DNA from: Candidatus Moraniibacteriota bacterium
Lineage (GTDB): Bacteria > Patescibacteriota > Minisyncoccia > Moranbacterales > UBA1568
NCBI GenBank assembly: GCA_041910335.1
Contig: JAYRRF010000010.1
Location: forward strand, 1 to 57,564
DNA: 57,564 nt
Direction: 5' to 3'
Shown piece by piece: positions 33,895 to 41,861 of this stretch. Positions within the stretch are counted from its first letter, which is position 1. Each line of letters starts with the position of its first letter. The notes below the pieces were generated by a model. The model searched no databases. It was not told where the DNA came from and saw nothing but the letters and a program-made list of their open reading frames with translations. The translations under genes were made by a program, and so were the position numbers.

Positions 33895-34294
33895 GGGGTT
33901 GTTTAGACTCGACAGCGTGTACTTTCAAAATAGGCAAGCCGACCTTGAGGATATGGTCGTAAATCTCGTCCTCATGATGATAATTGCAAACCTCATCTCA
34001 AAGACAAAGAGCGCATTTGCTAACGCATTTGCTCCCTCTTATGCTCTTGCTCTTGCTTAATTAAAGCAAAGCCATCAGCTTACTGACTCTCGATAAGGAC
34101 AGCTGGTGTCATAATCATCGAGACGACTCGTTGCTTTCACTTTTTTTACAACATCAGTCGTATTGCAAAAGAAAGAACCATTAAGAAGTTTTGTTTCTTT
34201 TTTCATTCTTGGTGGTCACTCCAAAAGAGACTACGCTTGTAGAATATTTTGAAAAAACATGATCTGGACATGGGTGCAATTCCCATCAACTCCA
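33895..34294 (+). ncRNA. ssrA: tmRNA (one-piece)
   Basis: 5' GGGGTTG pairs with 3' CAACTCC-A with G3:U70; GACTCGAC motif; T-arm ATGGG-TGCAATT-CCCAT; tag ORF 33986-34060 ANLISKTKSAFANAFAPSYALALA; adjacent to smpB. Confidence 0.95.
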
Positions 34295-34306
34295 CATTTA
34301 ACAACA

Positions 34307-38250: not shown

Positions 38251-39189
38251 TTAGATAATACTGACTCCTCCGAGACTCATGAACCAGAAACCAAGTCCGA
38301 TAATAACAAGTGCGGCCACTTTCTGCGCCCAATCCCAGAATCCCAAGTGTTCACCAAATATCTGCGGGAAGCGCATACTGAGTGGTATCGCCAGAATGAG
38401 TAGAAATACATATTGAAGACCATTCAGGGCTTGAACGAATGAGACTGAGCCAAGATTAGTAGCGTAAAGGATAAGAAAAGTAGCTACTCCTGCACAACTC
38501 TTGTTAACTACAAAAAGTACGAGTGTGAGAAAGTTCTGCTTACTCTTCATTTTCTGTGGCTCATGGTGAACGAGAATCTGTTTACGATACAGAGGAATGA
38601 GTAAGAATGAAAGACCGGTCAACACCATTCCGAGTCGAGACCAGACAAGCCCATTCACAAAGTTAATTTCGGTGTAACCATATTTCAAAAGTAATAGCGA
38701 GCCACCCAAGAGGATTCCAGCTATAATACCAGCCAAGGGAAGTGTATCACCCTTACGGAGCGGTAAGTCATAGGCGATAAGCATTCCTCCGACTATCAAG
38801 AGAGCAAGCGCGATGAAGACCGTGCGCGTAAAAACAATTTCTCCAAAAACATGTGGGAAAAGAGCTCCCACCAAAATGACCGTAAGCGATGTGATCAGCC
38901 CTACCAGAGGAGCTATCCGTGCCACATTTCCCTTCTTTACAGCCACATAGAAAAAGACTAGTCCGATAATGAATAGTACTCCCGACAAAATAAAGAGGGC
39001 TATAAAAAAAGCTGGAATCAAAGCAAATCCGAATGGAGCAAAAATAAGCGAAAAGAGACTGAACAATGAAACATAAAAGGCATAAACCACTGGCTGCGGA
39101 ATATGCTTGTCAGTCAAAATAATTTTATCGAGCAGCTGCGAGACGGCATTACCAAAATAACCGAGAACAGCAAATGAAATCCATGACAT
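38251..39189 (-). CDS. EamA/DMT-like multi-TM protein
   Basis: About 10 hydrophobic segments with a two-repeat DMT-like pattern. Confidence 0.65.
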   Translation of the reverse strand: MSWISFAVLGYFGNAVSQLLDKIILTDKHIPQPVVYAFYVSLFSLFSLIFAPFGFALIPAFFIALFILSGVLFIIGLVFFYVAVKKGNVARIAPLVGLITSLTVILVGALFPHVFGEIVFTRTVFIALALLIVGGMLIAYDLPLRKGDTLPLAGIIAGILLGGSLLLLKYGYTEINFVNGLVWSRLGMVLTGLSFLLIPLYRKQILVHHEPQKMKSKQNFLTLVLFVVNKSCAGVATFLILYATNLGSVSFVQALNGLQYVFLLILAIPLSMRFPQIFGEHLGFWDWAQKVAALVIIGLGFWFMSLGGVSII

Positions 39190-39275
39190 AATGATACTCC
39201 TATTATACCTCAAATATGCTCTAACCTGTAACAAAACACCCTCTATAAGAGGGTGTTTTGTTACATCTCTGCCAC

Positions 39276-40106
39276 TTACTTCTGTAAGGCTATCTGACTG
39301 TAGTATTTATGGACATCACTGACCCATTTGCTGACACTTTCTTTGGAGTGCGTCGCACAGCTATTACCACACTTCCATGAGGTCACTAGTCTTGATGGAT
39401 CTGAGCTTGCTCGTTTTTCTACTAGTTTCTCCAGGCGGGCTCCCACTGTCTCAACCGCTTCTTCTCGAGAGGCAAAGCAGGCATATCCCATAGCCGTACC
39501 TCGGCCGCCAGCTCCTTTGTATCCCCAATAGTTATAACAATCCTCCCCACCCTTACTTGGAGAATGCTCTCCCCAACTACTCTCCTTCTTAGCGATACCT
39601 ACCAAAAGGCCAGCGATAGACTTATCGAAATGAGCGATACTGCCTGCCATAGCATGAATAGGTGACCCCTCAGTCACTTCTTCAATGATGAGTTGTTTCT
39701 CAAGATTTTCTTTGATACTTGGGTCAATTACTTCAGTATCTGGTTGACTCTTTTGCTGACACAACACCTCCTGGTCTTGTGTGGTAGTTTCATGAGCTTT
39801 TTTGATTTCACGAAGATCCCGCTTGAACTGACAAAGCTCATCTGATGGAGTTTCTGTTGGTATAACAACCTGGGTAGCCTCAACTTGAGTAGCAACCGTG
39901 GTTGGTACTGAAAGAGCTGTTTCGACTGGCAAGCCAGGAAAAGCACTCAAAAAGGTGAAAGAAAGGGCTGTAAAAGACGACACCCACTTGTGTCTTGCAT
40001 CCTGTCTTTCAAATTGTTTTAAAATAATATTCCCTCCAAGGCGTCGTGTTGCACGACAAAAACTTATAAAGTTTTCTAAATTCATAGATTGGCCACCCTG
40101 TTTCAC
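39276..40106 (-). CDS. Exported protein with lysozyme-like (glucosaminidase-like) C-terminal domain, paralogue B
   Basis: GIAKKESSWG, CYNYWGY, CFASREEAV; start GTG 40106 behind GGAGG (alternative ATG 40085). Confidence 0.6.
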   Translation of the reverse strand: MKQGGQSMNLENFISFCRATRRLGGNIILKQFERQDARHKWVSSFTALSFTFLSAFPGLPVETALSVPTTVATQVEATQVVIPTETPSDELCQFKRDLREIKKAHETTTQDQEVLCQQKSQPDTEVIDPSIKENLEKQLIIEEVTEGSPIHAMAGSIAHFDKSIAGLLVGIAKKESSWGEHSPSKGGEDCYNYWGYKGAGGRGTAMGYACFASREEAVETVGARLEKLVEKRASSDPSRLVTSWKCGNSCATHSKESVSKWVSDVHKYYSQIALQK

Positions 40107-40273
40107 GATCAAGCCCTCCAAGCTTTATCAAACATTGCTGGAAACCGGTCGACCATCGCTCATAAGAAATTATGCGACGAATAATCTACCTCCAGAGTGG
40201 CGTTACTGATTAGCGTTTCTCAGTCCCTATCTCTCTATAGTAGAGAGAAAAGCTTCCTTAAGACGCAAGAGCA

Positions 40274-40309
40274 ACTATAGCAAATGGTCAAAAAATGGTC
40301 AATGGTCAA
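40274..40309 (-). promoter_or_regulatory. Sigma70 promoter overlapped by three TTGACCAT direct repeats
   Basis: TTGACC(40297-40302)-N17-TATAGT(40274-40279); extra copies at 40286-40291 and 40304-40309. Confidence 0.7.
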
Positions 40310-40413
40310 AACTGCCTACTTTATGGCTTGTATAAGGCAAAGTACATGTTTTTTCCCTCATTTTAGCCACGAAAATATGGCTTAAATAAAGTATTTTCTG
40401 AGAATTACGGTAA

Positions 40414-40438
40414 GAAAAAAGAGGCTTTTCGCCTCTTT
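40414..40438 (-). terminator. Intrinsic terminator after paralogue A
   Basis: AAAGAGGC-GAAAA-GCCTCTTTTTT. Confidence 0.8.
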
Positions 40439-40445
40439 GATACAC

Positions 40446-41435
40446 CTATTCTTTCTTTTGAGGCTCACCCGCATCAGTCGGTGCTTCTTCCATGAACTTC
40501 GAGTAGTACATATCGACATCTGCTATCCACTTGCGCACACTTTCCCGGCTATGCCCCTGGCAACTGAAACCACACTTCCAAACCACGAGCTTCTCTGGGG
40601 TATTGAGCTGCTCAGAGTGAATGAGGTTGTCTAGTCGCTTCGCTACGGTATCTACTGCATCCTGACGACTATTGAAGCACGTATGACCACCTGTTCCCAT
40701 CATCCTCCGCACTCCACGATAACCCCAGTAGTTGTAGCAATCTTGTCCATTCAAAACTGGCACGCGCTTCCCCCAGTTACTCTCCTTTTTGGCAATACCG
40801 ATAAGAAAAGCAGCGGTGAGGCGGTCTTTCTCAAGGATATATGGGAGCATATCTTCTATTGGATAACCTTTGACCATTTGACGAATGTTTTCTTCATAAC
40901 GAGCATCCTGAGCATCAGCAAAGTACTCGAAGAAGACATCCTGTTGAGGGTCATATTCTGCTGTGCTCAGATTCACTTTCTGGTTTTCCTCGGTCACCAC
41001 TGGAGCTTTCTCATCAGCGAATACTCCTTTACCAAGAAACTGTGTCATCAGGGCCATTGAGAGAATACCGAAAACTACTCCTCCAGTAAGAGAAGCATAG
41101 ACCATTTTCCGGGGACCGAGCTCTGGAATAAGACGATCGAGAGTGCGACGGAAACGACGGCTGTAGAGTTGACCTCGACGAACAAAAAGCCAGAAACCTT
41201 CGGCAACTGTTTTTTCTTTGAGATTTTCAAGTAGGTTCTTTCGCTCTCGACGAAGACCGTCGAGTGTACGTGCTTCTTGTTGGTTAGCTACAAGGTAAGT
41301 TCTTCTTCGTTGTTCGCGCAATAAAACATAATCCGGGATGACAACTCCCTTCTTACCCTTGGCTTGAATATCGAGACTTCCTTTGCTGCGTGTAGGAAGT
41401 ACGTAGGAATGATACTGGAATGACTCTGGTTTCAT
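40446..41435 (-). CDS. Membrane-anchored protein with lysozyme-like C-terminal domain, paralogue A
   Basis: TM near aa 112-135; GIAKKESNWG, CYNYWGY, CFNSRQDAV, WKCGFSC. Confidence 0.65.
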   Translation of the reverse strand: MKPESFQYHSYVLPTRSKGSLDIQAKGKKGVVIPDYVLLREQRRRTYLVANQQEARTLDGLRRERKNLLENLKEKTVAEGFWLFVRRGQLYSRRFRRTLDRLIPELGPRKMVYASLTGGVVFGILSMALMTQFLGKGVFADEKAPVVTEENQKVNLSTAEYDPQQDVFFEYFADAQDARYEENIRQMVKGYPIEDMLPYILEKDRLTAAFLIGIAKKESNWGKRVPVLNGQDCYNYWGYRGVRRMMGTGGHTCFNSRQDAVDTVAKRLDNLIHSEQLNTPEKLVVWKCGFSCQGHSRESVRKWIADVDMYYSKFMEEAPTDAGEPQKKE

Positions 41436-41450
41436 TTTCTTTTACTCGTT

Positions 41451-41861
41451 CTATGGTTTGTTTTCATCAAGGGCTACACCAGCTTTTTCAGCAAAAAACT
41501 TTTTGACATCAGGCTCGCCAAAGAAACACTTGTTCCCCTCTGTATAGATAAATGGAACTCCCACCTTGCTTGCATCAAGACCGCAAGCTTCAGCCTTTTC
41601 TTTCATCTGGGCGCTATTGGTACGACTATGCCACACTTCTTTCTTGGTGAAGGTGAACTTAGAAGCAATGTCGTTGGACTGCAAGAATTCATTGATACGC
41701 TTACAATGAGGGCATTCTTCTCCGTAGAAATAGATAGTACTAGCATCAGGTACGCTCGCCGCTTGCTTTTGAGCACGACTATCCATCACTGCCCAGACAA
41801 TCAATCCGATGATGAGTACTCCTGCGATGCTAAGAATAATAGCTACTTTTTTTGATTCCAT
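41451..41861 (-). CDS. Membrane-anchored glutaredoxin/thioredoxin-fold protein
   Basis: N-terminal TM, CPHC, GVP cis-Pro motif. Confidence 0.8.
   Translation of the reverse strand: MESKKVAIILSIAGVLIIGLIVWAVMDSRAQKQAASVPDASTIYFYGEECPHCKRINEFLQSNDIASKFTFTKKEVWHSRTNSAQMKEKAEACGLDASKVGVPFIYTEGNKCFFGEPDVKKFFAEKAGVALDENKP

Follow-up and report, generated by a model that had tools for sequence, protein, structure and literature searches.

In Actinobacteria and Firmicutes, long structured 5' leaders of the cyclic di-AMP (c-di-AMP; ydaO/kimA) riboswitch class, RF00379, control cell wall hydrolase genes, and in the infC-rpmI-rplT leader, the ribosomal protein L20 binds a long-range pseudoknot operator and thereby controls the access of the ribosome. 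To our knowledge, gene regulation in ultra-small, host-dependent Patescibacteria has hardly been explored. A rare riboswitch candidate that is associated with a single gene is the Fibro-purF motif, which has 30 unique representatives (PMC7668255). The current study deals with the mRNA leader of gene B, a probable wall hydrolase gene located on the minus strand of contig JAYRRF010000010.1 (GenBank assembly GCA_041910335.1). The contig belongs to the 0.79-Mb, 93%-complete genome of a Candidatus Moraniibacteriota bacterium (G000), and its whole stretch of 57,564 nucleotides (C10) is referred to as the window.

As judged from the alignment of orthologous leaders, purifying selection acts on the leader RNA. 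The full element appears to consist of five leader helices (P1, P2, Ha, P4, and P5) and two hairpins in the coding sequence (CDS), extending from position 40266 of the window to about position +46 of the CDS. We give roughly even chances to the interpretation that it is a lineage-specific, structured cis-regulatory leader of the gene B mRNA, which occludes the translation start and whose trigger is left unspecified. A preliminary description of the locus had proposed a candidate new cis-regulatory RNA, and the presence of a long, structured, and conserved leader that lacks any match in Rfam bears out this proposal. It had also made the idea dependent on covarying structure in orthologous leaders, and such structure is present.

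Conserved promoter and selection on the leader

Sixteen distinct leaders were compared, all of them located upstream of orthologues of paralogue B, i.e., 15 close sequences and the more distant one of genome G021. They were obtained from genome loci, from one metagenome pattern scan at the DNA level (two hits, one true and one due to chance), and, by twelve look-ups of contigs, from the loci of the closest B orthologues, which share 53 to 72% amino acid identity. Among the records L061 to L067, which are placed in the same genus by GTDB, six (from five assemblies) are titled "uncultured Bdellovibrionales bacterium" and one "Candidatus Moraniibacteriota bacterium"; the first label looks misassigned. 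All leader elements are given in minus-strand coordinates of the window. Positions relative to the start codon count the A of the gene B ATG as +1, and the +1 of GCGT and of P1 is the first transcribed base.

Gene B is preceded by a near-consensus promoter of the sigma-70 type (40302-40274) with a -35 box TTGACC (40302-40297), a 17-nt spacer containing TG, and a -10 box TATAGT (40279-40274), which represents the sole promoter-like site within positions 39000 to 41600. The arrangement TTGAC-N18-TATAGT-N7-GCGT was found at 16/16 orthologous loci. From the spacing, fixed in all orthologues, we infer that the gene B transcript starts at G40266, the G of GCGTC, 7 nt past the -10 box, and this position of the promoter implies that a long leader exists. 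The 5' limit of 40267 in the preliminary description was therefore right, and the conserved promoter argues for a distant transcript start instead of one much nearer to the gene. No terminator was found inside the leader. The gene B start codon ATG (40085-40083) is universal and lies in the invariant context GCCAAYCTATG, which is reached 172 to 184 nt after the transcript start in the 15 close leaders and after 214 nt in G021. All B leaders of the genus (L003 to L026) begin with RCGTYYYTAA exactly 7 nt past the -10 box, even when the leader is otherwise unrelated; promoters in G000 do not generally have GCGT at +1.

The mean pairwise identity of the leader amounts to 0.65, with blocks at 0.87 to 0.88. 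The spacer 5' of the promoter, which was used as a neutral yardstick, is near saturation with a mean pairwise identity of 0.38. Third codon positions are identical at 0.92 in CDS nucleotides 1 to 45, at 0.67 in nucleotides 45 to 90, and at 0.35 to 0.45 beyond nucleotide 180. The conservation of the leader and the early CDS, seen against these near-saturated yardsticks, indicates that the constraint on the RNA begins at the transcript start and extends into the CDS. It could be objected that the element is nonfunctional, the conservation reflecting recent common ancestry and the helices chance, because the sequences represent few clades and several helices never vary. This explanation is extremely improbable, since the yardsticks are near saturation (0.35 to 0.45) in the very sequences whose leader blocks reach 0.87 to 0.92, since the stems of P2, P4, and P5 have been rebuilt with different sequences, and since 0/500 shuffles reached the observed covariation score. 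This score is 0.267 for the full model, compared with 0.182 for the shuffles, and 91.6% of the alignment cells are paired, compared with about 45% when the partners were slid. For the Ha domain alone, 0/500 shuffles likewise reached the observed score. A leader peptide or upstream open reading frame (ORF), located after either of the two GGAGG motifs or starting from ATGTTTGAT, was rejected, as neither its frame nor its length is conserved.

Secondary structure of the leader

The structure model was built from RNAalifold, single-sequence folds, and pair counting, and its core is a three-way-junction domain that is closed by the long-range helix Ha. The 5' strand of this 9-bp helix, GCCACTCTG (40201-40193), pairs with the 3' strand CAGGGTGGC (40100-40092), which was assigned from the alignment and the folds and directly follows the segment J3 (GTGAAA, 40106-40101; joint interval 40106-40092). 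At the RNA level, the strands read GCCACUCUG and CAGGGUGGC. The 3' strand occupies positions -17 to -9, i.e., 15 to 7 nt upstream of the ATG. Ha is part of both the minimum-free-energy (MFE) and the centroid folds, with a predicted probability of 0.84 to 0.99 in the 15 close leaders and of 0.54 in G021, the latter measured on a register shifted by one base. In the close set, 96% of the Ha cells are paired and the changes are wobble-compatible only, but some of them arose independently, e.g., U-G to U-A in L035/L036 and in L058, and U-G to C-G in L051. The distant leader of G021 retains Ha as GCUGUUCUG with CAGGAGCAGC through two double compensatory changes. According to the predictions, forcing the 3' strand of Ha open costs 4 to 11 kcal/mol and yields a fold with a local CUGGA/UCCAG helix and P5.

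The 5' domain (40266-40213) consists of P1 and the enclosed hairpin P2. P1 pairs GCGT(C) at 40266-40263 with ACGC at 40216-40213 (GCGUC/GACGC in the RNA) and starts at +1 in all sequences; 93% of its cells are paired, and one pair is altered on both sides. P2 is an 8-bp hairpin formed by TCTCTCTA (40248-40241), the loop CTA, and TAGAGAGA (40237-40230), with 90% paired cells and four pairs altered on both sides. In relatives, its stem is replaced by GUAUUUC/GAAAUAC, GCAUUUC/GAAAUGU, or CUGUUU/AAACAG. A pairing of the 5' end GCGUCC with GGAGGG in the CDS, which was proposed by RNAalifold, was set aside in favor of the contiguous and covarying P1. The CDS partner in that prediction is a third UUGGAGGG (window positions 40033-40041, minus strand; CDS nucleotides 45 to 53), which encodes a conserved L-G-G.

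Two hairpins emanate from the junction. P4 (40190-40147; GGT...ACC) is variable, with the hairpin 40179-40154 as its core; 94% of its cells are paired, and seven of the ten pairs are altered on both sides. P5 consists of GATAAAGC (40129-40122), the loop TTGGAGG (40121-40115), and GCTTGATC (40114-40107), i.e., GAUAAAGC, UUGGAGG, and GCUUGAUC in the RNA. The GGAGG of the loop is identical in 16/16 sequences, and the stem has been rebuilt with other sequences in L048 (AUCGGC/GCUCGAU) and G021 (GAUUUC/GGAAUC). The P5 stem of clade 2 is in a different register, which reduces the paired cells on the fixed alignment columns to 65%.

Two further hairpins, H1 and H2 (40076-40043), span positions +10 to +43 of the CDS. 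H1 pairs GAAAAC (40076-40071) with GTTTTT (40063-40058), H2 pairs GTCGTG (40057-40052) with CACGAC (40048-40043), and in 15 sequences, 100% of the cells of the two stems are paired. H1 is closed by G-U, G-C, or A-U, a pair that varies through nonsynonymous changes. The ATG is thus flanked by Ha, which ends at -9, and by H1, which starts at +10, and about 15 nt around it are predicted to be single stranded.

The segment J2 (GGTTTCCAGCAATGTTT, 40146-40130), in which GGUUU and CAG are invariant, lies between P4 and P5. Its UUUC(C) (40144-40140) is complementary to both GAAA (40104-40101) and GGAGG (40119-40115). The two pairings are mutually exclusive, and each is 100% compatible with the alignment. 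GGUUUCC (40146-40140) is invariant except for a C-to-U change in clade 2, which is matched by a G-to-A change at both partner sites; in G021, both partner positions form U-G wobble pairs. This toggle of J2 looks like the sole switch-like feature of the leader, a view based on a single clade split.

The fold outlined above differs from the one given in the preliminary description, although all motifs named there are located on the minus strand as indicated, i.e., AAGCTTT (40255-40249), AAAGCTT (40126-40120), the 8-bp hairpin (40248-40230), CTGA (40223-40220), TCAG (40209-40206), CTGGAG (40195-40190), TTTCCAG (40144-40138), and GGAGG (40119-40115). Two of its four helices exist in the window only. 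The supposed closing helix AAGCTTT/AAAGCTT has 7/7 pairs in the window compared with 3 to 5 scattered pairs in 14 other leaders, and the CTGA/TCAG hairpin forms in none of the 14 other orthologous leaders; the real closing helix is Ha. The position of the 8-bp hairpin (P2) is conserved with compensatory changes, and the third hairpin (40179-40154, the core of P4) covaries strongly. The remaining pairing, CTGGA/TCCAG, is compatible with 15/15 close leaders, but it never covaries, overlaps Ha, and is lost in G021, where the duplex has a predicted energy of +0.1 kcal/mol. CUGGA may pair with UCCAG or lie in Ha, and both options are compatible with the alignment. The interval 40100 to 40270 folds no better than shuffled sequences (z = -0.22), since it is too short to include the 3' strand of Ha, the real closing helix; z values of -1.89 and -3.18, respectively, were obtained for the full leader (40083 to 40266) and for the orthologous leader of G014, both of which include Ha. 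From the folding predictions we infer that the earlier fold may correspond to a transcript that still lacks the final 15 nt of the leader.

Gene B product

Gene B (40085-39276, minus strand) encodes a protein with a basic N terminus, one hydrophobic segment, and a cysteine-rich C-terminal domain with four invariant cysteines and the motifs IAKKES.WG and CYNYWGYKG. The preliminary description had regarded the product as lysozyme-like and the gene as one for a cell wall hydrolase. Shared motifs, the NCBI name of one orthologue ("glucosaminidase domain-containing protein"), and a weak resemblance in fold to GH73 and SLT enzymes speak for this assignment, but no significant match was found by sequence in Pfam, NCBIfam, or the PDB. 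The AlphaFold2 model of the C-terminal domain (window positions 39279-39734, minus strand) is confident (predicted local distance difference test [pLDDT] score, 87; predicted template modeling [pTM] score, 0.83) and shows the invariant E of IAKKES.WG where a helix ends and four strands follow. A Foldseek search of the PDB with this model returned no neighbor, and the best hits among the viral models of BFVD were weak matches to GH73 glucosaminidases and SLT transglycosylases (E = 0.24 to 0.28; template modeling score, 0.5 to 0.6). The domain is probably a lysozyme-like or GH73-like glycosidase, and the term "lysozyme-like" is plausible but not established. The signal-anchor-like N terminus and the conserved cysteines indicate that the product is probably extracytoplasmic and, if so, that it cannot regulate its own mRNA. 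The profile of the gene B family also matches RNP1 of the RNA recognition motif (RRM) of PABP (G-Y-A-C-F-x-S-x-E-E-A), with a marginal E value of 0.048 that is probably due to chance.

Paralogue A and the upstream spacer

The tandem of A and B is present throughout the genus and the order. Paralogue A (41435-40446, minus strand) ends with an intrinsic terminator (40438-40418) located upstream of the gene B promoter. Unrelated genes have been inserted between A and this promoter in three lineages, and the promoter and the leader stayed with B each time. The spacer between A and the promoter (window positions 40303-40445) accordingly represents an insertion hot spot in the relatives, with about 1 kb containing a helix-turn-helix-like ORF in G007 (L031), a gene for a 217-amino-acid protein in L039/L040, and an RVT_1 reverse transcriptase in L045. 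A recurrent motif, CTTTATATAAGCC or GCTTTAAATAAGCCA, was observed at window positions 40330-40400 (minus strand), at eight sites in G000, and in most A-B spacers of the genus (L003 to L026). It precedes -35 boxes by about 40 to 60 nt, and in many cases a hairpin is formed with TGGC and a T run farther downstream; the motif may represent a binding site for a regulator or an insulating terminator.

Rfam matches, distribution, and the riboswitch interpretation

The scan of the window with Rfam 15 at the gathering thresholds detected only the transfer-messenger RNA (33895-34297) and no match for the leader. A permissive scan of positions 39900 to 40500 (E up to 10) returned nine hits at chance level, none of them a riboswitch, with 12 to 18 bits compared with gathering scores of 40 to 80. 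The covariance models of the c-di-AMP (RF00379), c-di-GMP-I/II, ZTP, and cobalamin riboswitches and of every other family in Rfam 15 thus gave no match to the leader. The distribution was investigated with R1, a covariance model of the Ha domain, which matched in 8/50 species of the genus, each time with a single copy per genome located in front of gene B. In 40 further members of the genus, the model gave no match even with relaxed filters and E values of up to 1, and about 250 genomes representing 103 additional genera of the order lacked the element as well; a marginal hit in G256 of another family (E = 0.024) lies over the end of a CDS and a terminator and was dismissed as spurious. Elsewhere in the genus, the B leaders are 23 to 131 nt long and differ in construction. 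A closing helix that abuts the ATG was seen in the MFE folds of several distant B leaders, but as a genus-wide rule it was discarded after a nonsignificant shuffle test.

These results bear on the interpretation of the leader as a metabolite- or ion-sensing riboswitch, in which the junction of Ha, P4, and P5 would be the aptamer and the ligand would set the partner of UUUCC and hence the closure of the start. The 5' leader has an aptamer-like structure that is conserved and covaries, with compensatory changes in P2, P4, P5, and Ha, and the three-way junction contains conserved unpaired nucleotides beside fully diverged helices. Both mutually exclusive pairings of one invariant segment covary with that segment, and a strong, conserved promoter in front of an occluded start region suggests posttranscriptional control. 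Furthermore, gene B probably encodes a peptidoglycan glycosidase, a class that is controlled by c-di-AMP riboswitches in other phyla. On the other hand, no E value of up to 10 yielded a match in Rfam, the predictions assign a very high stability to Ha without a near-isoenergetic alternative, the remaining B leaders of the genus have another construction, and the recurrence across taxa or in front of several genes of a pathway that is usual, albeit not strictly defining, for riboswitches was not observed, as the element is confined to the same gene in a minority of the species of one genus. A riboswitch in this general sense is rather unlikely, and the term used in the preliminary description went too far, given that no ligand, aptamer class, or multigene regulon is indicated for an element of one gene in eight species of one genus. 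A more specific version, i.e., a narrow new riboswitch class of Patescibacteria in which a second messenger or a metabolite from the wall or the host would release the translation of the glycosidase via the UUUCC toggle and Ha, is clearly unlikely as well.

Translation start and mRNA stability

The GGAGG at 40119 to 40115 had been regarded as the Shine-Dalgarno (SD) sequence of a GTG start codon at 40106, a view that could not be upheld, as the GTG is not conserved and the genome barely uses SD sites. The GTG is in frame with gene B in some sequences only; in six sequences of clade 2, which carry a one-base insertion, TGA closes the frame, and L049 has CTC at this site. The GGAGG is located 29 nt from the conserved ATG and is therefore not a working SD sequence for ATG 40085. 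The use of SD sequences in G000 is very low; a count of GGAG, GAGG, and AGGA before the first ATG of 677 long ORFs revealed a faint peak at -13 to -8, with 10 to 16 counts compared with a background of 6 to 9. The 16S rRNA gene is absent from the assembly, so that the anti-SD sequence cannot be read there.

The genome encodes RNase J (471 bits) and RNase Y (623 bits), which leads to the alternative that the leader is purely an mRNA stabilizer and sets a constitutive expression level without any switching, the helix at +1 and the compact fold protecting the mRNA against these two enzymes, with the GGAGG of the P5 loop possibly holding a 30S subunit. A helix at the 5' end, in line with such a function, is provided by P1, which begins exactly at +1 in all sequences, provided that the transcript start is deduced correctly. 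The conserved GGAGG far from the ATG and the predicted static nature of Ha also fit. Yet a stabilizer would need neither the 17 conserved nucleotides of the junction, nor a helix that abuts the start, nor hairpins in the CDS that are selected at synonymous sites. Of the two GGAGG motifs that might serve as a stabilizing SD (STAB-SD) sequence, the first (40193-40189) is largely (about 60%) paired and is not conserved, being replaced by GGAGAG, GGAAGG, or GGACUU in relatives; the second is invariant and exposed in a loop, but it lies 150 nt from the 5' end, and pairing with the SD sequence is hardly used in this genome. Taken together, a purely stabilizing leader appears quite unlikely.

A protein-bound translational operator, e.g., for a ribosomal or an envelope-stress-responsive RNA-binding protein, would resemble the pseudoknot operator of L20, and both a long-range helix beside the start region and a hairpin loop containing GGA are reminiscent of protein operators. 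The narrow distribution of the leader would fit a coevolution with a lineage-specific factor. CsrA is the obvious binder of GGA loops; its domain (PF02599) was not detected in the genome, whereas control genomes matched, and a CsrA operator was consequently rejected. The product of gene B itself, as a probably extracytoplasmic protein, cannot be the autoregulator, its RRM-like RNP1 match is marginal, and no candidate for a binding protein was identified. Protein binding is accordingly a very unlikely explanation.

Proposed regulation and significance

A lineage-specific structured leader that occludes the translation start remains the preferred interpretation. As SD sequences are rarely used, an open start region is probably needed for initiation, and the fold would hold translation down. 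The start region flanked by Ha and H1 would keep the translation of a potentially dangerous wall hydrolase low, and the 5'-terminal helix P1 would protect the mRNA from RNase J. UUUCC of J2 would toggle between GAAA beside Ha and GGAGG in the P5 loop, and a signal, for which a ligand, a protein, the 30S subunit, or temperature are candidates, could open or close the start region. During transcription, the local fold with CUGGA/UCCAG and P5 should precede Ha, which would then displace it.

Several observations weigh against this interpretation. No double compensatory change occurs in Ha among the 15 close sequences, and clade 2 carries a G-G mismatch in the middle of the helix. The very high predicted stability of Ha suggests a static rather than a bistable structure. 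As three or four clades account for most of the sequences, few independent evolutionary events are represented. The SD census is based on rough start codon calls, i.e., the first ATG of long ORFs, and a crude test of the other B leaders of the genus revealed no systematic sequestration of the region from -18 to -8. Finally, the transcript start and every effect of the leader on translation were deduced from the sequence.

The wall hydrolases of Patescibacteria likely matter for cell division or for the attack on host cells. The leader offers defined helices, 16 natural variants, and a clonable object of about 230 nt, together with the prediction that opening Ha raises translation. Moreover, an invariant GGAGG in a loop, in a genome that barely uses SD sites, may be informative about translation initiation in such bacteria. 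A leader that only damps expression or stabilizes the mRNA would represent ordinary biology.

Comparison with known systems

With translational T-boxes and other start-occluding platforms, the B leader shares the anti-SD-like UUUCC, GGAGG, and, as a third segment, GAAAC, which is complementary to the anti-SD sequence; it differs from T-boxes in lacking a specifier and the features of Stem I, and a likeness of AGGGUGG to the T-box was discarded, as no T-box match was found at E up to 10. The stabilizers of aprE, ermC, and cryIIIA, known from organisms with RNase J, are comparable with respect to a helix at +1, an SD-like GGAGG far from the start, and the presence of genes for RNase J and RNase Y. 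In contrast to 5' stem-loop or STAB-SD stabilizers, the B leader displays its conserved GGAGG in the loop of a hairpin, at a distance of 150 nt from the 5' end, and its structure is conserved to a far greater extent than a stabilizer would require.

The B leader resembles the c-di-AMP riboswitch as a long, structured 5' leader of a probable wall hydrolase gene, but it lacks the pseudo-twofold architecture of that class and any match by cmscan at E up to 10. The c-di-AMP class is also widespread and associated with many types of genes, whereas the B leader precedes one gene in eight species. As in the L20 operator, Ha joins segments that are about 100 nt apart, ends just before the start codon, and would control ribosome access; unlike that operator, the B leader has no known cognate protein, does not belong to a ribosomal gene, and has a nested structure. 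It is not demonstrably a pseudoknot, but a contact between UUUCC and GGAGG in the loop would make it one.

The closest parallel with respect to rarity is the Fibro-purF motif (PMC7668255), which is unrelated in sequence and fold and belongs to the gene of a metabolic enzyme, whereas gene B encodes a probable envelope glycosidase. As this glycosidase is not a metabolic enzyme, the gene context of the B leader suggests no ligand. Both elements have few representatives (16 for the B leader, compared with 30), are associated with one gene in one genus, contain covarying stems, and owe their proposed function to the gene context. The B leader, which belongs to no Rfam family, is of a kind that is already known, i.e., a structured cis-regulatory leader.

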